Source: a virus (Duplodnaviria; Caudoviricetes). From it: a DNA stretch of 38,773 nt. Shown in pieces: positions 5,153-14,203 of the stretch. The notes under the pieces are model-generated. The model saw only the letters and a list, made by a program, of their open reading frames with translations. It did not search any database and was not told where the DNA came from. A program made the translations under genes and the position numbers. The DNA is taken from positions 1 through 38,773 of IMG/VR virus record IMGVR_UViG_3300020599_000172; one strand, given 5' to 3'. Position 1 is the first letter of the stretch. Each line of letters opens with the position of its first letter.

Positions 5153-5195
5153 GCGGGTCAGTATCCGCCCGAGTGTGCACTCCGTTGGGAGCGAC
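5153..5195 (-). promoter_or_regulatory. Putative late promoter box, copy 1 (upstream of tail fibre/lysis genes)
   Basis: 33-bp near-identical repeat of 26653-26685; GATACT -10-like hexamer 7 nt before ATG 5152. Confidence 0.65.
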
Positions 5196-8100
5196 TACCG
5201 CTCGCCGCTGATCACGTCGCTCCCGACCGACAGCGGCGAGGCCCCGCGGTAGGGGCTGTCGCCGAAGAGGAGGAGGTCGCCGGCCTCGAGCGGATCGCGA
5301 GGCTCGAGCTCGCCCGTGTACATCTTCCAGGCAGCGCCTCCGGTCCGCTTCCCCTGGGTGACGGGGAGCCCTCGAACGCTGCCGTAGGCCTCGAGGACTG
5401 CGCCGACCTTCTCTTCCGGCTCATCGGACGCCGCGGCCTTCCCGAGGGCATTTATAAACCGCTCGCCGGCGGCGAACATCGGGGACACCGCCAAGCTGAA
5501 CCGCCGATGCTTCGCCTTGCCGTGCCAGGCAAAGGTGGTGACCCGCCCCGCCGCCTCCTCGGCCGCCCACCCAACGAAGGGAACCACGATGAAGGGGGCG
5601 GTCAGCGCCTTGCGGGTCGCCCACTCGTCCCATCCTTCGTCCTCCTCGGGGCCGTCGCCCACCAGGAACGAGCCAAGGACGTTGGTGGCGAGAAGAAGCG
5701 CAAAGGCCTTCCCGTAGGCCCGGGCGCGACCGGCGGGCGTGTCTGCCTCGCCCATCAGGCGCAAGACGATGTTCCCGAGCTGGTTGAAGAATCCGAACAT
5801 CGCCAGGAGTGACCCGATCCCTTTCCGATCTCGCAGGAGCGCCGACTGCTCGAGGGCGGTCGCCGAGGGCTGGTGCTTTCGCACCACGTCGTCGGCATGC
5901 TGGATCGCCCGGGCCTCGTCTTCTGCGGTCGGCTCGCCCGTCTTCGAGCGCTTCGCCGCGGCCGCCAGGTAGTCGTTGCGCGCAGCATCCCAGATGATCG
6001 TGGACGTGTAGGCGTCGAGCTCCTCCTGGATGATGAAGCTGTGGTCGATGATGAAGTCCTCGACCCGCCGCACCGGTTCGTAGGCCTTGGTCACCGGATT
6101 GAAGACCTTGGTCCATCCCTCTCGCCGCCGCTTCGTGTTCCCCTTGCGGCCCACCTCGCGCATCTTGTGCTGCAACGTCTCCCGCAGGTTGGCCGCTCGC
6201 TTCTGCAGCTCGGGGGAGAGCGCCAGCGCTTCCTGGCGCAGCCGCCGGTAAGCCAGGGGCGTCCCGTGCCGGAGGGAGGCAGACAAGGAGCGGGCGCTGA
6301 CTTCGCCCGTTATCAACGGGGTGGCGACCTGGAGGATGTCCGCTCCCCAGGAGCGCACGTTGTACGCCAGCGCCGAGAACACGAAGGCCGAACGGGCCTT
6401 TCCGAGACCGCCGAGCATGAAGTTCGTAAAGCCCGAGACCGAGGCGTCTTGGCTCTCCGCCACCGCCTTGGTCCACTCGCGCAGCCGGTCGATGTAGGGC
6501 CGCCCAAGTCGCCGCTCCACCGCCTCGAGGAAGGCGTCCTGCGCGAGCAGGCGGTTCATGTCCCGCACGAACTCCTCGAAGGCGATGTAATGGATCACCT
6601 GGGAGAGGTGGGCGGGCACCGTGCCCCATTCAAGCGAGAGGGTGCCGTCGAACCTTCGAGCGCGCGACTTGGTGAACCCCTTGGCGACCGCCGCGGCCGC
6701 GCTCGAGCGGGAGTCCTGCACCCCGGCGTCGGCTTGGCGCGCGGCGATCATCCCGGAGGAGGGATCGCGCGCCTGGGTGTCCATGCGGATGGGGAAGTAG
6801 CCGCCCGCGTAGTGCACCGACTGGCCGTCAGCCAAGCGGAGGGTGAACGGGGCGTTGGGCACCCGCCCCGGGCGGATCCCGTTCACCCGCTCGTGGACCT
6901 TCTCCATGTGAGGGCGCAGGCGCTCTGTGATCGCCAAGATCCCCTGGAGGAAGTCCGCCTCTTCCTTGGTGAGGTTGGCTTGGAGGAATCCCAGGACCTG
7001 CTCCTCGGTCCACCCGAATCCGTCCAGCAGCCGCTGCCGGTTGCCCTCGTTGCCCCAGTTCAAGAAGAGCATCCACATCCACTCGCGCGTGGTGGGGGTC
7101 TCGTCGCGGCGGGTGCGACCGGCGACCGGGAGCATGGAGGAGTCCACGGCCTCGTAGCGTCGCTCCTGCATCTCCTCGGGAAGGGCATCCCACGCCTTCA
7201 TGAAGTCGACGGTCACCTCGTCCGCGAGGCGCTTCTCTTCGATCTGGGCCTCGAGGAAGCGCCGGAACATCGAGTGCGCCTTCTGGCCGAGCTGCTCGAA
7301 GATGAGCTCGATGTTCTTGTAGCCGGAGATGAAGCCAATCCGCCTCAGCTTCCGCCCCCAGGCTTCCGCCTCGAAGGCCTCGTCCTTGGGCGACAGGCCC
7401 CGGTCTCGGATCGCGGTCGCCTGCTGGCGGACCTCCCCAGCGAAGTCGTGGAAGTACTGGCGCCGCCCCTCGACGAAGAACTCCGACACCACGATCCCCG
7501 CCTTCTTGGCTTGGAGCAGGGTGGCGTGCACTTCGGCCAGGTCTTCGACGGAGAGCTTGCGCCAGTCCGGCCCCTTCGCCTGCTCGAAGAGGATCCGCGC
7601 CACGCGCCCCTGGTCGTAGACCGGGGTGATGCCGATGTCCGCGAGGATGCCGGACAGGGCGCCGATGCCTGCAAAGGCGGGCAGGTCGGGGTCGTCGGGC
7701 CGGGCGCCGAGCTGGACGAGGAGTCCATCGATCAGGTCCCGGAGCTCGGGGTTGGCGACCCCGATGCGCGCCCGGCGCTTGTTGTCGTTGAGCTCGCCCA
7801 CCGTCTTGGTGAACGCGTCCCGGGCCTTCTCGGCCGCCACGAGCTCCCGGTAAAGGAAGTGGTTGAGGAGCTGCTGCTGCTTGGCCTTGGTGGCGGCTCC
7901 CCAGTCCCGGGCCAGGAGGGCCTTCTGGAAGCGGTCCGCCGCTCGCCGCTCCTCGAGGAGGGCGCGCCGGGGAGAAAGCTTGCCGACCGGCGTCCGCGCG
8001 ACGATCTGCCGCGCCGCCCGCTTGATGGCCTCCACCGGCACGGTGCGGCTGCCGCTGGTCGCGCCGAGGCTCACCAGCTCCCGCAAGATCGCGTCGCCGT

Positions 8101-11100
8101 AGCCCTTCTCCGAGTGCTGCACCTCGTGGATCTGCTGGGCGAGCGACTCCCGATCGGCGAGCAGATCCCCGTGCTTTTCCCGCATCCGCTGCGCCGCGAG
8201 GTTCTGGGTCCACTTGTCCCTGGCCGGGAGGTTCTGGGACCACACCGCCTCGAACATCTCCCGGGCGCTGGCGAAGCCCAGCTCCGCGGCCAGGTTCTCG
8301 GCAGGCTCGCCCCGCTTCTTCCGCGACTTCTTGAGGAGGATCCCGCGCAGCTCCTTGAGCTGGGGATGGTTCTTCCCCAGCACCGCTTCGGCGGAGTCGC
8401 GATCGATGCGGACCGCCGGCTCGACCTTCTCGCCGTTCAGCTCCGAGAAGCGCAGGTAACGCCAAGCCCTCACCGCCGGCAGGGCGTCGTACTCAGCCTC
8501 GGCCGCCTCGAGCTCTTTCGCGAGCTCCTCCCGATACCAGCGCTCCGCCTCCCGCTTCCGGTCCTCGAGGGCGCGCAAGGCGACCTGCTTTTCCTCCTCG
8601 AGCTCGGCACGGTCCATCGCCGCCTGGTATTCCGCCCAGGCGGCATCATCCATGTACTCGGGCCGCTCGAGCAGGCGCCTGCTGCCGGACCGCTCCCGAG
8701 CGAGCTCGATCTCCGCGTCCGTGGCCAGGAGGCGGTCGAACACCCCGCGCACGTCGTCGGAGAGTTCCACGTCGAGGGCAGCGATCGCGCTGTAGATCCG
8801 CTTCATCCACATCTTGATCCGCCCGAAGGCCCGGCGCAGCGCCGCGGACGGGGCCTTGCCCTCGAACAAGTACGCCTCGAAGCCGCGGGCGAATTGCTCG
8901 TGGTGCTCCCGCTGGATCTGAGAGCGGTCCTCCACCCCGAGCCACCCGAGAAGCTTGGCGAAGTCCTCGCGGATCTGCTCCGGGGCGTCTGACCGCGCCG
9001 CCAGGTCGGCGAACACCTCGAGCATCAGGTGCCCGGTCTCGTGCAGGAACGTGGAGAGGTCGCCCCGCTTGCCGATGGTGATGGTGAAGTCGTTGCCCGC
9101 CCGCTCCATGAAGCCGCGGGCCTTGCCGTCTCTGCGATGCTCGAACTTGCTGGAAGCAGGCGATGGAGATAGCTTGTCGAGCAGGCCCGCTCCCAGTTCG
9201 TCACGACTAAATGTAGGGGCGAGCTGCGTAGCGCCGGATCGAGCACGAACCTCACCGGTTGCATCGGGCCTGCCTTCCTCCCACCCCGTCAGTAGCCACG
9301 TTTTACGCTGCCCGTGCTCGTCGAGCGACAGCACCGCGCGTCCGGTCCCGTACGCCAGCTTGACGGTCTTCTTCTTCTCGGACCAATGCTCGACCGTGCC
9401 GAGAGCCACGGCACGAAGCACCTTCTCGACCACATCCACGCCGCGCCGGGCGCCAATCTTCTGGAGGCCAAACTTCCCGTCGCCCCAAGGGATCGCCACG
9501 TCCGGCGAGCCTCCGAAGGCCTCGAGATCGGGGCGCAGGCCCGTGGCGACGCCCTCCTCTGCCCCGGCGGCAAGCGCCTCGACTGCGCCGCGCACGTTCG
9601 CCAGCTTTGCGCCATCACGGCTCGTCCCACCGTGGTCCGGCTGGTAGAGCACCAGCGCGTTCCCGTCCTGTGCGTAGACCACCGTGTCGGAGAGGAGCTT
9701 GGCGTGCAGCTCCTCCGGCGTCGCCGCCGTCTCGAACATCGTCGTCTGCCGGGGATCCCGGGCCGCCTCGTGCGCCCAGGCACGGAAGCGGGCCTCGAGC
9801 TCGCGGGGCTTGGAGCGATCGAGCAGCGACGCCATCCGAACCACGTCCGGATCTTGCCTCGTCTCGGCGAAGAGGCCTTGCTGCCCGGTGAGCTCCTCGA
9901 GGGTGAGGCCGCGCGCCCGGGCGTCGTTGAGGAGGTCGAGGGCCTGCTGCACCAGCGGGATCGCGCTCGCCGCCGGGTTCACTCCCTCGACGCGCAGGAG
10001 CGGTGCGGCGAGCCGCTCGACCTTCGCCGCGATCGACGGCGCCGTCTTCGCCAGGCGGTCCCCGGAGCCGACCACGCGCCCGAGGAACATCCCCTCGATC
10101 CGGTCCTTCGCTTCATCGGTGAGGTTCGCGCCGGCGAGCCAAGCCGCCTGGTTCTGCGCGGTGATGATGCCGTCGCGGCGCAGGATCTGGACGAGCTCCG
10201 CCGGGCTCTCCCGCATGACCTCGCGCAAGGAGGCGTCGCCGCCGTCCGCGAGCAGCTCGCCGATCGCGGCGACCGTCTCCGGCGACATGGTCTTCGCCTC
10301 TGCCACCGCCCGGGCGCGTGGGGAGAGGGCCTGGGTGAGCCCTTCGTTGGTGCGCCGCACCGCCGCCACCAGGTCGGCCTGGGGAGCGTTTGAGGGCACG
10401 TCGTCGAGGACGCGCACCAGGACCGGCGCCTCCATCCCTTCGACCTTGGCCCGGTCGAGGCCGAAGCCTTCCGCCTTCTCGAGCAGGGCCTCTCGGTACT
10501 TCGCCCGGGCGCCCTCATCCCCGAAGGCACGCAGGAGCATCATCGAGCGGCCGTTGCCGCCGAGGACGATCGCCCGCCCGGCTGCCACCAGCGGGGGGCC
10601 GTCCACGGCCGTGGGCGTGTCGGTGAGGAGCAGCGCCGGGTTCAGCGTGGCCGCGCCCCTGGCGACCTTCGCCTTCTCCTCGGGCTGCCGGTGGTACTCC
10701 CGCTCCTGGACGCCGGCGGGATAGGCCGGGTGCGGCGTGAAGCCGTGCGGATCGTGGGAGGGGATGAGGTCGGCCGCCTCGATCACTGCGTAGTGCGCCC
10801 GCTCGCCCTGGGGGCGCTGCGGCGTGATCACGCGGGTGTCGTTGCCGACTACTCCTTGGCGTCGGGGGCCGGCGAAGCGCTGGCGTCCGGTCCGGGGACG
10901 ATCACTCGGCCCTTGTAGCGAATCGGTCCCGACACCCGCAGCTTCCGCCCCGACTTCAGCATCTCCGTCACCTCGTCGAACGAGACGCTGCGCGTAGGCT
11001 TCTTCGCCGCGGAGGCCTGCTGCTCTTCGGTCGGCTTTGTTCTGGTTGAGGGCTGCGTCGGCATCGGCATCACTTTCTCCCACCCCGAACGAAAAAGGAA

Positions 11101-14100
11101 TCCCATGAAGGATGAATTCCTCCCCGGTCTGCGGGTCCGTCAGTGGGATTTCGATCTGCTCAGCGTTCTCCGCAAGCTTGCGGGCGAATTCCTCCAGGGT
11201 CGCGGCGTCGTCGTGCTGCCCTCTGAACTCGTCTCCTGAGACGTGCGCCGCATCCACGCTCGCCGCGCCCGTGTCCGCTGCGACGATCCCGAGCGCCTGG
11301 AGGATGAGATCGCCGCCCTCGAGGCCGAACCGGGTGTTGAAGTACTTCAGCCCGTCCACGTCGAGGGAGAGCCTCGCCGCCTTGGCCGGGAGCGAGTAGA
11401 ACCCCTGGCCCGTGAGCAAGCCCGACGCCGGCTCGACGAACATCGCCTCGAACGCCTGCTCTTCCGGCATGGCGTCGAAGGCCTCCTCGAGGCCCGCGGG
11501 CAGAGGGCGTGCCGTCGGCGCCGGCGCATCGAACGCCGCCCCTTCGGTGAGCCCAAGGGGCCGCTCCCCGCGCGGCGCCCGCCGCCCTTCCGCCTCGAGC
11601 TGGGCCTTGACCTCACCGTGGGCCTGACCGGCCGCCTCGAACGTCTCCCCGATCGCCCCCGTCACCTGGAGGCCCTGAAGCTCCGGGCGGTCGTTGATGG
11701 CCTCCAGCAGCGCGTCGAGCTCCGCCTGGTCGCGGACGCGCACCGCGAAGTCGCCGCCGATCTTCGCGGCGTCCGGCGCAACCTCTCCGAGGGCCGCCCC
11801 CACCGCGCGGTAGAGGGCATCGCCGGCGACGTGGCTCTCGGTGTCGTTGATGAACTTCGTCCCCTCGACCGACAGGTGGGCGACGAGCGGGCGCTCCGGA
11901 TCGACCGGGAGGGCGTCGAAGCCACGGCGGTTGAGCAGTCCCGTGTTCGTGTCCCGGTAGAAGGCGGCCAGCCGTGTCTCACGGCTCATCTCGTGGAAGG
12001 CGTCGGTGAGCCTCCTCGAGGCCGGCGGGATCTCGTCCTGGGCTGCGAGGATCTCGGGCGCCACCTCGAGCAGCGCTTCCGCCTGCTCCGCAGGCTTGGC
12101 CTTCGCCGCCGGCGGACGCCGCCCCTGGGGTGTCGCCTGCACCCTTCGCCCGGAGCCGGTGATCTTCAGCGTGTACGCCTTGAAGATCTCCTTGGCCGGG
12201 ATCTTGAAGCGCTCCGCCATCACCCGGGCGAAGGCGCGCAAGGGGGCGAGCTGCGCCTGGACGTTCGTCTTCGCCACGCCCGCCGCCTCGAGCTGCGCCT
12301 CGGCCGCCGCCAGGAAGTCCGCCTCCGCGGCCGACTCCGCGGGCACGTTCTCCTGCTCGAAGCGCTTGACCAGCTCCTGCGCCGCCTCCTCGATCGCGGC
12401 GTTCTCCTGGACCAGCTCCGCGGGGGTCCGATGGCCCGGCCGCGTCGCCGCGTGTTGGGCGAGCTCGTCGGCGAAGGGGAGGGCGCCCAGCCGCGACACG
12501 TAGCCTTCGACCGGGATCTCGATCTTCCCGCCGGTGGCTTCCGCCTCAGCAAGCCTGGCTTCGGCGTCCTCGCCCAGGAAGGGCCGGGGATCGACGTTGT
12601 TCTCCTGGAAGAGGCGGAGCACCGGCTCGGCGTCCAGGAAGATGCTGGTCACCTCCTCGCCGCTCTTGGCAGTCTCCACCCGGATCGCCTCTGCGATCGC
12701 GTCCGGCGCCGCCTTGGCGGTGTCGCCCTGGGCGAGCTCGTGGAGCTTCTCCACGACGGCCTGGCTGGAGAGTTCCCGGCCGAGCTGCCGCATCGCCTCC
12801 CTGCGACGCTCGGCGCGCAGCCGCAGGGTCTCCACTCCTGCTTCCCTTGCCGCGCCCACGAGGCCCGGCCCGGCGCCGCCCAGGGCGCCCAGGAAGAAGT
12901 CCCCGAAGGTGCCCTCAAGGAGCGGCACCTGAACCCCGGAACCCGCCGCCGTGCCGGATCGAGTGGCGACCGTCTCCAGGACTTCCTCGGTGCCTTCCTC
13001 GAGAGCGCTGGCCGTCGTCCGCGCCAACGCGGTCACCGCCCGCCCGCGCCCCACGAAGAACCGGGTGGCGGGATGCGCCAACTTGGCGGTGAGCTGCCCG
13101 CCCACCGCGCCCACGGGGGCGGCGAAGGCGGCTGCCCAATCCTCGGCCTGCTGCCGGGTGTGGGCCACCGCCTCCTCGTGGCCCATCCCCCGCGCCCGGG
13201 CGGCCCGGTATACCGACGACTCGTCCGCGATCGCGAAGGTGCCCTCGACCCTGCCGGGCGTGTTCGCCAGGGTGTCGATCGTCTGGCGGGCGTCATCGAC
13301 CGCCGCGCCGGCGGACTGGGCGCCGCCGATGGCGAGGCCCACCCGCCCCGCGACCGCCGCGCTCCCGGCGGCCCACGACATCGCAAGCAGGGGCGCCATC
13401 TGCCCGAAGATCTCGGTGCCGTGCAGGGCGAAGCCGCGCAGGGACGGGGCCTCTCCCAAGCTCCAGGTGGACGGGCGAAACAGGTTGCCCGACGGCGTGG
13501 AGCCTTCAACAGCCCCATGGCCCATCGGAGAAACCCTGGCGTCCCCCTTCTGCGCCTGCCGCTCAATCCAGTCGGCCCACGGGTCGCCGATGTTGGGCAT
13601 TTCGTAGGAGAGCCCGAACGTCTCCAGCGCCGGGTCCGCCACCGCCTGCCCGGCGATTCGCAGTAGCCCGCCGGCACCGCGGAACGCCATCGCGTAGCCC
13701 CTCAGTGCCCCCGCGTTGAGCTTGAACCAGAGGTCCCCGGCGAGATTGGACTCCTGGGAAGAGGCGCTGAGTTGCTGGAGAGCGGCGAGCGAGGGGTCCC
13801 GCATGGCGATCTCGGCCAGGTCGGGATCCCGACGGATCATCGCGTCGAGAACCGGGTTCTCGCGGCGCCACTTCGCCGGGTCGAACTTCGCCGACTCCCA
13901 GGAGCGGGCGAGATCCTCGAGGTTGCGCTCCACGAAGTCCCGAGGGAGCCCCGTTTCCTTGGCGAACCGATGCACCACCGCCTCGGCCGGCAGCGATGTC
14001 ATGGTGGGCATCGACTGCTCGAAGGCGCGGCGCACGAATGCGTTGGCGGCGTTCTCTCCCGCCTGCATCCGCTCGAAGGCTTCGTCGTAGGGGTTGATGG

Positions 14101-14203
14101 AGTAGGGCTGCTCTTCGTAGAGCCGATCGGCCGCGTCCGCGTAGGGGTTGACGGTGGGATCGGTCAGGTCCCGGTTGCCCAGCGTCTCGTCGAAGATCGC
14201 CAT
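5195..14203 (-). CDS. Giant internal virion/ejection polyvalent protein (3002 aa): 2x GGDEF-like, DdrB-ParB-like, PBECR-like RNase, zincin metallopeptidase motif
   Basis: Position of T7 gp16-type genes; motifs DTNTGLLNRRGF/KFINDT.SH.AGD, DVDGLKYFN...SGDEF, YAVIEAADLIPSHD/GNGR, WG...GL..I...WLLTGWE, TFLHETGH...HEQFARGFEAYL. Confidence 0.9.
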   Translation of the reverse strand: MAIFDETLGNRDLTDPTVNPYADAADRLYEEQPYSINPYDEAFERMQAGENAANAFVRRAFEQSMPTMTSLPAEAVVHRFAKETGLPRDFVERNLEDLARSWESAKFDPAKWRRENPVLDAMIRRDPDLAEIAMRDPSLAALQQLSASSQESNLAGDLWFKLNAGALRGYAMAFRGAGGLLRIAGQAVADPALETFGLSYEMPNIGDPWADWIERQAQKGDARVSPMGHGAVEGSTPSGNLFRPSTWSLGEAPSLRGFALHGTEIFGQMAPLLAMSWAAGSAAVAGRVGLAIGGAQSAGAAVDDARQTIDTLANTPGRVEGTFAIADESSVYRAARARGMGHEEAVAHTRQQAEDWAAAFAAPVGAVGGQLTAKLAHPATRFFVGRGRAVTALARTTASALEEGTEEVLETVATRSGTAAGSGVQVPLLEGTFGDFFLGALGGAGPGLVGAAREAGVETLRLRAERRREAMRQLGRELSSQAVVEKLHELAQGDTAKAAPDAIAEAIRVETAKSGEEVTSIFLDAEPVLRLFQENNVDPRPFLGEDAEARLAEAEATGGKIEIPVEGYVSRLGALPFADELAQHAATRPGHRTPAELVQENAAIEEAAQELVKRFEQENVPAESAAEADFLAAAEAQLEAAGVAKTNVQAQLAPLRAFARVMAERFKIPAKEIFKAYTLKITGSGRRVQATPQGRRPPAAKAKPAEQAEALLEVAPEILAAQDEIPPASRRLTDAFHEMSRETRLAAFYRDTNTGLLNRRGFDALPVDPERPLVAHLSVEGTKFINDTESHVAGDALYRAVGAALGEVAPDAAKIGGDFAVRVRDQAELDALLEAINDRPELQGLQVTGAIGETFEAAGQAHGEVKAQLEAEGRRAPRGERPLGLTEGAAFDAPAPTARPLPAGLEEAFDAMPEEQAFEAMFVEPASGLLTGQGFYSLPAKAARLSLDVDGLKYFNTRFGLEGGDLILQALGIVAADTGAASVDAAHVSGDEFRGQHDDAATLEEFARKLAENAEQIEIPLTDPQTGEEFILHGIPFSFGVGESDADADAALNQNKADRRAAGLRGEEAYAQRLVRRGDGDAEVGAEAAGVGTDSLQGPSDRPRTGRQRFAGPRRQGVVGNDTRVITPQRPQGERAHYAVIEAADLIPSHDPHGFTPHPAYPAGVQEREYHRQPEEKAKVARGAATLNPALLLTDTPTAVDGPPLVAAGRAIVLGGNGRSMMLLRAFGDEGARAKYREALLEKAEGFGLDRAKVEGMEAPVLVRVLDDVPSNAPQADLVAAVRRTNEGLTQALSPRARAVAEAKTMSPETVAAIGELLADGGDASLREVMRESPAELVQILRRDGIITAQNQAAWLAGANLTDEAKDRIEGMFLGRVVGSGDRLAKTAPSIAAKVERLAAPLLRVEGVNPAASAIPLVQQALDLLNDARARGLTLEELTGQQGLFAETRQDPDVVRMASLLDRSKPRELEARFRAWAHEAARDPRQTTMFETAATPEELHAKLLSDTVVYAQDGNALVLYQPDHGGTSRDGAKLANVRGAVEALAAGAEEGVATGLRPDLEAFGGSPDVAIPWGDGKFGLQKIGARRGVDVVEKVLRAVALGTVEHWSEKKKTVKLAYGTGRAVLSLDEHGQRKTWLLTGWEEGRPDATGEVRARSGATQLAPTFSRDELGAGLLDKLSPSPASSKFEHRRDGKARGFMERAGNDFTITIGKRGDLSTFLHETGHLMLEVFADLAARSDAPEQIREDFAKLLGWLGVEDRSQIQREHHEQFARGFEAYLFEGKAPSAALRRAFGRIKMWMKRIYSAIAALDVELSDDVRGVFDRLLATDAEIELARERSGSRRLLERPEYMDDAAWAEYQAAMDRAELEEEKQVALRALEDRKREAERWYREELAKELEAAEAEYDALPAVRAWRYLRFSELNGEKVEPAVRIDRDSAEAVLGKNHPQLKELRGILLKKSRKKRGEPAENLAAELGFASAREMFEAVWSQNLPARDKWTQNLAAQRMREKHGDLLADRESLAQQIHEVQHSEKGYGDAILRELVSLGATSGSRTVPVEAIKRAARQIVARTPVGKLSPRRALLEERRAADRFQKALLARDWGAATKAKQQQLLNHFLYRELVAAEKARDAFTKTVGELNDNKRRARIGVANPELRDLIDGLLVQLGARPDDPDLPAFAGIGALSGILADIGITPVYDQGRVARILFEQAKGPDWRKLSVEDLAEVHATLLQAKKAGIVVSEFFVEGRRQYFHDFAGEVRQQATAIRDRGLSPKDEAFEAEAWGRKLRRIGFISGYKNIELIFEQLGQKAHSMFRRFLEAQIEEKRLADEVTVDFMKAWDALPEEMQERRYEAVDSSMLPVAGRTRRDETPTTREWMWMLFLNWGNEGNRQRLLDGFGWTEEQVLGFLQANLTKEEADFLQGILAITERLRPHMEKVHERVNGIRPGRVPNAPFTLRLADGQSVHYAGGYFPIRMDTQARDPSSGMIAARQADAGVQDSRSSAAAAVAKGFTKSRARRFDGTLSLEWGTVPAHLSQVIHYIAFEEFVRDMNRLLAQDAFLEAVERRLGRPYIDRLREWTKAVAESQDASVSGFTNFMLGGLGKARSAFVFSALAYNVRSWGADILQVATPLITGEVSARSLSASLRHGTPLAYRRLRQEALALSPELQKRAANLRETLQHKMREVGRKGNTKRRREGWTKVFNPVTKAYEPVRRVEDFIIDHSFIIQEELDAYTSTIIWDAARNDYLAAAAKRSKTGEPTAEDEARAIQHADDVVRKHQPSATALEQSALLRDRKGIGSLLAMFGFFNQLGNIVLRLMGEADTPAGRARAYGKAFALLLATNVLGSFLVGDGPEEDEGWDEWATRKALTAPFIVVPFVGWAAEEAAGRVTTFAWHGKAKHRRFSLAVSPMFAAGERFINALGKAAASDEPEEKVGAVLEAYGSVRGLPVTQGKRTGGAAWKMYTGELEPRDPLEAGDLLLFGDSPYRGASPLSVGSDVISGER
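9147..9175 (+). promoter_or_regulatory. Putative sigma70 promoter antisense within giant gene
   Basis: TTGCTG(9147-9152)-17 nt-TAGCTT(9170-9175), in a patch where the host ORF uses atypical AT-ending codons. Confidence 0.5.
9181..9273 (+). ncRNA. Candidate structured antisense small RNA nested in giant gene
   Basis: Perfect 9-bp closing stem GCAGGCCCG/CGGGCCTGC starting at predicted TSS; internal hairpin and possible pseudoknot. Confidence 0.45.
10849..11070 (-). CDS. Nested out-of-frame small protein (73 aa, MPMPTQPSTR...) inside giant gene
   Basis: GGAG 6 nt before ATG; about 10 of 73 codons end in A/T in this frame versus about 33 of 74 in the giant ORF frame (hand count). Confidence 0.65.
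   Translation of the reverse strand: MPMPTQPSTRTKPTEEQQASAAKKPTRSVSFDEVTEMLKSGRKLRVSGPIRYKGRVIVPGPDASASPAPDAKE

Follow-up and report, generated by a model that had tools for sequence, protein, structure and literature searches.

Type II toxin-antitoxin systems and polymorphic toxin-immunity pairs consist of an enzyme domain followed by a small, fast-changing and partly disordered partner, and the two are exchanged together. The phage locus considered here is similar in that a small gene is tightly linked to, and co-inherited with, an enzyme domain. Unlike in those pairs, the partner is overprinted in a reading frame that continues through it, and the enzyme lies as a domain within a virion protein. 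By analogy, the best reading of this nested gene and the adjoining second GGDEF domain (GGDEF2) is that they would work like an effector-immunity pair.

The lambda gene Rz1 lies inside Rz, in the +1 frame (PMC5295617). As in our locus, the embedded gene lies on the same strand, in the +1 frame and wholly within a phage late gene, and uses a stretch tolerated by the host frame. In the available part of that source, the two products form a complex, whereas the complex of the nested protein with GGDEF2 is a prediction; the spanins are membrane-fusion subunits and Rz1 is a lipoprotein, whereas the nested protein of 73 aa is soluble and contains neither a signal peptide nor a lipobox. Also unlike Rz1, the nested protein is predicted to sit on an enzyme domain of a 3002-aa protein, has a candidate promoter of its own in many relatives, and is hypervariable. 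An embedded spanin pair was considered and rejected, as the host gene encodes a 3002-aa virion protein and the nested protein contains no cysteine and no signal peptide. In bacteria, comS within srfA and gndA within gnd (PMC11230408) are small genes that likewise lie out of frame in large coding sequences and have conserved ribosome sites. They differ in being chromosomal, and the accessible part of that source reports binding to a domain of the host protein for neither.

Iyer et al. 2017 (PMC5512222) proposed that polyvalent phage proteins are packaged and injected, and treated GGDEF as one of the conflict domains. The host protein of our nested gene has the same architecture (GGDEF, DdrB-like ParB) and virion-gene context. 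Neither a nested gene nor a cognate inhibitor is described in the available sections of that paper, and a tandem pair of a degenerate and an intact GGDEF domain was likewise not encountered there. Pseudomonas phages have YfiN-binding peptides, which are likewise small and have a GGDEF enzyme as their target (PMC8085984); as far as the accessible text of that report goes, they differ in that this enzyme belongs to the host and their genes stand alone. A search of open-access full text gave no account of nested genes in polyvalent proteins or of this GGDEF pair. The new evidence for the nested gene concerns its partner, its promoter and its cassette.

The nested gene and its host gene

The window (the whole analysed stretch of 38,773 nt) corresponds to a provirus record of 38.8 kb whose completeness is 92%. 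It has genes for terminase, portal, a T7-like capsid, a gp14-like protein and tail, and the lysogeny genes for an integrase and a repressor. An independent genome, of the same class as an Archangium assembly, matches the window without a difference over 3993 nt, and thus the bacterial host of the phage is likely a myxobacterium. The following features are considered first:

5195..14203, minus strand: giant host gene of 3002 codons, encoding a polyvalent internal-virion protein in the large-ejection-protein position
10849..11070, minus strand: nested +1 gene, 73 aa, over host residues 1045-1118
11077..11081, minus strand: Shine-Dalgarno box GGGAG, 6 nt 5' of the ATG, within the host Val-Gly-Glu codons GTG GGA GAA
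11088..11120, minus strand: A/T-rich patch before the nested start, made up of synonymous codons in the host frame
10406..10798, minus strand: ddrB-like ParB domain, aa 1136-1266, directly downstream of the nested gene in the window only

The giant gene comes after the gp14-like and lysozyme-like ejection genes, and its product contains a weak LPD22 match, a GGDEF pair, the ddrB-ParB domain and an HExxH motif. The minus strand reads GGGAG-AAAGTG-ATG, with GGAG at 11080-11077, the ATG at 11070 and the stop codon TAG at 10851-10849. The preliminary description, made from the sequence of the window, had reported a same-strand ORF at this place with 10/73 codons ending in A or T, against 33/74 in the host frame; the ORF (73 codons, +1 frame) and both counts are exact. 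The A/T-rich patch is also as described, with 20 of its 33 positions A or T, which makes it the top A/T 33-mer of the giant gene. At 11085-11122 on the minus strand, the patch is predicted to form a hairpin of 9 pairs with five T behind it (-8.4 kcal/mol). An ATG farther upstream in the same frame (11106), preceded at a distance by GGAGG, makes an 85-aa form of the protein possible.

The host stretch under the ORF had been described as a low-complexity linker. This holds for most of it, but the first ~20 overlapped host codons encode the last GGDEF helix, which forces the S/T/P/K-rich N-terminus of the nested protein. The latter is followed by a core of residues 24-61 (helix and beta-hairpin) and a short tail. 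A compact alpha/beta core, as suggested earlier, is weakly supported when the protein is modelled alone: AlphaFold2 gives a helix at 31-39 and a hairpin at 50-58, with mean pLDDT 62.6 and pTM 0.27.

The GC3 of the giant gene is 0.89 overall and dips below 0.72 at two places only, the nested-ORF overlap and aa 1626-1700. The high GC3 of the nested frame is partly trivial, as its third position is position 1 of the host frame; it is the collapse of GC3 in the host frame that carries information. With six structural genes as the reference, codon adaptation is 0.615 for the nested ORF, 0.351 for the host frame in the overlap and 0.703 for the host gene overall. Among all +1 windows of the giant gene (mean 0.36, sd 0.07), the nested ORF has the maximum value.

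The GGDEF pair

11591..12010, minus strand: GGDEF1, aa ~732-871, degenerate; the first metal Asp and the signature acid are lost, K783, N786 and H791 are invariant
11021..11461, minus strand: GGDEF2, aa ~915-1061, with D948, N956, D965, SGDEF and K1056

The structural model of the pair is confident (pLDDT 95.8, pTM 0.88), and Pfam PF00990 is found in 33/36 rows of the protein alignment. The second domain matches DgcR with Z 16.4, rmsd 2.0 and 137 aligned residues, and Foldseek also matches diguanylate cyclases; the mCpol OptS matches it at Z 9.2, well below these. A likeness to the Cas10 palm, which also combines a degenerate and an active domain, was considered and dropped, as Cas10 is not among the structural matches listed for this domain.

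GGDEF2 keeps the catalytic residues, both D948 and the GDE motif being present in 36/36 rows. In GGDEF1 the position of the first Asp is T or S in 31/36 rows and there is no GDE, while K, N and H are invariant in 36/36 rows despite the degeneracy of the domain in all of them. The metal- and guanine-binding residues were numbered after PleD. A diguanylate cyclase dimer has these residues in both partners, and GGDEF1 has lost the metal ligands; canonical two-site synthesis of c-di-GMP is therefore not assumed. No RxxD site was found in the 36 rows. By analogy with the chemistry of PleD, the composition of the pair points to a dimer within one chain that has a single active site, and GGDEF1, a conserved pseudo-domain, may set the product of the enzyme. 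No locus with a dead GGDEF2, beside which the nested gene might have been lost, was found, the GDE motif being intact in all loci.

Conservation of the nested frame in related loci

The protein search gave 87 matches, 36 of them with GGDEF2, and their alignment was used to fetch DNA from viral, metagenome and genome collections. With duplicates of the same contig or sequence dropped, the final set comprised 37 non-redundant loci, including the window. Left out were L004, L088 and L106, which end before or early in the linker, L066 and L121, which contain a run of N, and 23 matches judged by eye to be ordinary cellular GGDEF proteins (L032-34, L036-40, L072-86). L011 was kept in the counts, although its nested ORF reaches the contig end after 68 codons. 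Codon positions were counted from a G-x-G anchor. The median identity of the GGDEF pairs is 31%, and 11 of 630 pairs exceed 60% (36 rows).

A +1 ORF of 53-126 codons is present at the end of GGDEF2 in all 37 loci (stop codons TAG in 26, TAA in 8, TGA in 2, one off the contig), and in 8/8 held-out loci that were reached later by other routes. In 45/45 testable loci, the window included, both frames are open and the ORF lies wholly inside the host gene, together with a candidate ribosome site and the codon signature; the nested-frame stops in homologues that would have spoken against a gene were not seen. Beyond the anchor, host GC3 falls from ~0.9 to 0.41-0.45 at 30-60 codons and then recovers, the drop being at least 0.16 in 37/37 loci.

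The nested ATG lies at -1 to +7 codons from the anchor in 35/37 loci, the exceptions being L018 (TTG at +6) and L006 (ATG at +28). The background expectation is ~2% per 9-codon window, and in a 50-codon control window after GGDEF1 an ATG was found in 3/36 cases. The host Tyr at +5/+6 is encoded by TAT in 20/22 cases, compared to 57/582 elsewhere, and the host Gly at +2 by GGA in 21/31, compared to 765/7714; the loci being kin, these TAT, GGA and ATG counts do not represent independent events. The putative start codon and ribosome site of the nested gene are built from rare synonymous codons of the host frame, and translation from this ribosome site is likely.

Alignment z-scores above 4 were obtained in 54 of 666 pairs for the nested frame, 18 for the host frame and 9 for the third frame. 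Beyond the last GGDEF helix, the nested score exceeds the host score in 51/60 related pairs, and by this measure the nested frame is better conserved than the host linker frame. The recurring elements of the nested proteins are a short helix and a beta-hairpin, often followed by another helix. Codon-position substitutions agree in part: host position 3, the most variable position in the GGDEF core, becomes less variable in the overlap for the three closest pairs (from 0.39, 0.21 and 0.36 to 0.17, 0.13 and 0.08), but the sum over ten pairs is flat across the codon positions (142/449, 147/449, 155/448). Overall, the earlier suggestion that selection acts on the nested frame is borne out over the 45 loci by the ORF, the codons of its start and ribosome site, and the frame conservation, and we regard the nested ORF as almost certainly a real translated gene.

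Two other readings of the ORF were weighed. One is that ribosomal frameshifting into the +1 frame provides the giant protein with a short alternative C-terminus. Shine-Dalgarno-like sequences can stimulate frameshifting, and the +1 frame of the window is open for 19 codons upstream of the anchor. On the other hand, the ATG is kept through the synonymous choice of TAT, and where it is missing at +5 to +7 it is usually replaced by one at -1; in five loci, +1 stops occur at -5 to +1, so that a shift would cut the last GGDEF helix. We consider frameshifting very improbable. Still harder to believe is that there is no gene at all, the ORF being a by-product of the Gly/Arg/Ala/Asp-rich composition of the linker or an assembly error. 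Naturally high GC at host position 1 does inflate nested GC3, and the identity of the nested tail with that of P0001, the one homologue among predicted proteins, is explained by a recombination boundary and not by selection. Against this stand the synonymous start and ribosome-site codons, frame conservation, codon adaptation, the fall of host GC3 across loci, the host frame open through the overlap in all loci, and the 3993-nt identity with the independent genome.

The gene had been called invisible to standard gene callers, and this holds: 5.8 billion predicted proteins, searched with the nested protein and a 26-row profile, gave P0001 (62% identical) as the sole match. None of 33 pattern matches was confirmed when viral contigs were searched directly with the 73-mer, and annotated phages gave only ParB or stand-alone GGDEF matches, none spanning the junction. 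Pfam gave no match above the cut-off for 24 nested proteins; no match was found in PHROGs for the nested protein of the window, by Foldseek with a low-confidence model as the query, or in the Atlas. A suspected likeness to Tad2/DUF2829 was discarded, being absent from the Pfam scan at E up to 1. The core profile run over six frames of the loci detected no second copy (best other match E 0.07). Of the eight held-out proteins, it clearly matched two and marginally two; four were not matched, and thus the nested proteins may not all share one function.

L012 (beyond 8532) and L105 (past the first nested stop) each have a further nested +1 ORF immediately behind the first. It encodes hydrophobic segments that look membrane-like, and the two ORFs form a putative two-gene nested unit. 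A different nested +1 ORF is found at the end of an unnamed domain of ~390 aa in L019 (host aa ~1625-1724), L062 (~2383-2489) and L064 (~1857-1952). This domain has a weak DUF7178 match in two of them and no sequence match in PDB. These ORFs suggest that the layout is general.

Candidate promoters

11147..11175, minus strand: position of the sigma70-type promoter of the relatives; in the window, degenerate TTGCGG-17-GAAATC, which does not beat the null

The score for sigma70-type promoters is highest on the sense strand, at 40 to 10 codons ahead of the anchor (mean 6.4); the next window, which overlaps this one, gives at most 4.0, and other positions at most 2.1. The weights are E. coli-type values, to which other promoter types are invisible. 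Relative to a null of GC3-matched synonymous recoding, p<=0.05 was obtained on the sense strand in 20/37 loci and on the antisense strand in 1/37. The promoter of the window itself does not exceed the null (p 0.70), and a strict scan of 8800-12200 for promoters and terminators found none.

Other promoter-like elements occur elsewhere in the giant gene. The second GC3 dip, at 9107-9322 (host aa 1628-1699), lacks the rise of position-1 GC typical of a nested gene and contains, on the plus strand at 9147-9175, TTGCTG-17-TAGCTT, the second-best antisense promoter score of the giant gene. It points back into a domain with the look of a PBECR-type RNase; this domain has no Pfam match. An antisense RNA guard is possible at this place, and the candidate RNA has no match in Rfam. 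The Rfam scan of 8800-11600 gave a single match at chance level. Near the 3' end of the giant gene, at 5451-5479, promoter-like hexamers lie back-to-back on both strands, scoring 10.7 (the best) in the antisense and 6.5 in the sense direction.

Apparent joint exchange with GGDEF2

The domain downstream of the nested gene varies among the 37 loci, the constant neighbor being the GGDEF pair. The ParB domain, which had been named as a possible partner, directly follows the nested gene only in the window and was rejected on gene context. In L022 (3-3152) and L035 (3753-7151), the GGDEF pair and the nested gene reside in lower-GC host proteins of another type; that of L022 contains DarA_C, and kinase-like stretches are seen by eye in hosts of this type. 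Thus the module has moved between genes.

10888..11352, minus strand: variable cassette that spans GGDEF2 aa 951-1044 and codons 1-61 of the nested gene, bracketed by contigs X4 and X7

The cassette was delineated from two public contigs of close relatives, X4 and X7; X3 and X9 are short pieces only. Of the sequencing runs listed as containing the sequence, none is of RNA. In the upstream flank (11352-12100), X4 has 6 differences from the window in 749 nt. Despite this closeness, 11071-11352 has been replaced; 10888-10981 has diverged, is shorter by 9 nt and has the length and pattern of P0001. X7 has 3 differences in 441 nt (10790-11230) and 113 over 1791 nt (10300-12090). From this bracket, the C-terminal half of GGDEF2 and the nested gene appear to be exchanged jointly, as one cassette. 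The co-exchange could stem from physical linkage alone, since the candidate promoter and the ribosome site lie in GGDEF2 DNA.

Predicted complex

The predicted complex of the GGDEF pair with the nested protein scores 0.69, the best of three controls 0.42. The pass mark is reached by 116/157 solved complexes and 2/215 mismatched pairs, counts that apply roughly, as own alignments were used. The runs agree in at least 73% of contacts, with partner pLDDT of at least 62; the nested protein has pLDDT 63-65 with the GGDEF pair, compared to 32 with an unrelated protein. All predicted contacts on the pair fall on GGDEF2, at aa 950-977 and 1013-1036, and involve nested residues 24-61. Thus the predicted interface is almost wholly inside the exchanged cassette, the boundary of which was not given to the model. 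None of the catalytic residues D948, K953, N956, D965, D991 and E992 is among the predicted contacts. No other part of GGDEF2 is as poorly conserved as the predicted docking surface (mean BLOSUM 0.28, compared to 1.84). Beyond overall relatedness, no specific covariation was detected between nested similarity and interface-residue similarity in these very divergent sequences (partial r 0.04, p 0.18), and GGDEF1 tracks nested similarity better than the interface does (r 0.14).

The passing complex prediction and the co-exchange speak for the earlier suggestion that the nested protein is a partner of the cyclase, and on the strength of the model it probably binds GGDEF2. A competing explanation is that it is an independent accessory gene with a host target, arisen once from signals in GGDEF2 DNA, and that the complex is a false pass. 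This would agree with the absence of interface-specific covariation, the high diversity of the nested proteins and the additional transmembrane ORFs that L012 and L105 have in tandem, and the shared DNA would explain the linkage. Nevertheless, mismatched pairs pass in just 2/215 cases, the interface coincides with the exchanged cassette, and the nested ORF is never lost in 45 loci, whose GGDEF pairs have a median identity of 31% (36 rows); we consider an independent gene rather unlikely.

Possible mechanism

We propose that the conserved +1 gene encodes a protein that clamps GGDEF2 and restrains the enzyme as a built-in antidote; overall, we put the chances of this at about even. Firstly, the nested gene would be translated from its own ribosome site. 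Secondly, the sense sigma70-type promoter seen inside GGDEF2 in 20/37 loci may be functional, and with a separate promoter the nested gene could be made while the late operon is silent, that is, in the lysogen. Thirdly, nested residues 24-61 are predicted to add a strand to the variable GGDEF2 hairpin (aa 1013-1036) and to pack on alpha1/alpha2 (aa 950-977), beside the nucleotide-binding residues. Fourthly, by gene position and by what has been proposed for polyvalent proteins (Iyer et al. 2017), the giant protein would be packaged and ejected; its degenerate and intact GGDEF domains may form a single-chain nucleotide cyclase or synthase, which, if unopposed, would harm or reprogramme the cell. 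Finally, the nested protein would restrain this enzyme both in the producing cell and when kin superinfect; presumably absent from the virion, it would leave the enzyme free in the next host. Overprinting would keep effector and antidote joined as the module moves between polyproteins, with the host frame uninterrupted. An antidote accounts for the retention of the gene in every locus despite sequence turnover, for a promoter useful in the lysogen, and for the joint exchange.

An inhibitor seems preferable to two other kinds of partner. The nested protein could bind GGDEF2 as an activator or licensing factor, with which, for instance, a lysogen turns the cyclase of an incoming relative into an alarm. 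The same binding and linkage evidence applies, the predicted contacts flank and do not cover the catalytic residues, and GGDEF enzymes with protein activators exist (the SiaC-SiaD structure entry). However, an effector that was ejected but depended on an activator made separately would presumably be silent in a naive host, and retention in 45/45 loci with rapid sequence turnover should fit an antidote better, which makes an activator unlikely. A slightly smaller chance is given to a chaperone for the folding, packaging or ejection of GGDEF2 that leaves catalysis unaffected: the partner folds on binding in the model, and a host protein of 3002 aa has to be packaged, but a separate promoter (20/37 loci) would be needless for a helper acting only during late operon expression, and the module recurs inside a different host protein.

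A wider version of the antidote reading is more tentative. Polyvalent virion proteins may be strings of effector domains, in which each harmful domain has an overprinted, separately promoted immunity gene in the next linker; the single-chain GGDEF pseudo-dimer may make an unusual nucleotide signal on injection, and lysogens may owe an allele-specific immunity against relatives to the hypervariable nested protein. This is doubtful as a whole, with the odds against it, and the second enzyme-like domain that ends in a nested ORF in three relatives is of the expected kind.

The nested gene exposes a small-gene family nearly absent from a catalogue of 5.8 billion proteins. If binding and inhibition are true, these proteins would be natural modulators of GGDEF-fold enzymes, and the cognate partners of polyvalent domains could be sought by a rule, in the +1 frame of the next linker. 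The proposed antidote offers a testable answer to the question of how a phage makes and packages a multi-enzyme weapon without poisoning the producing cell.
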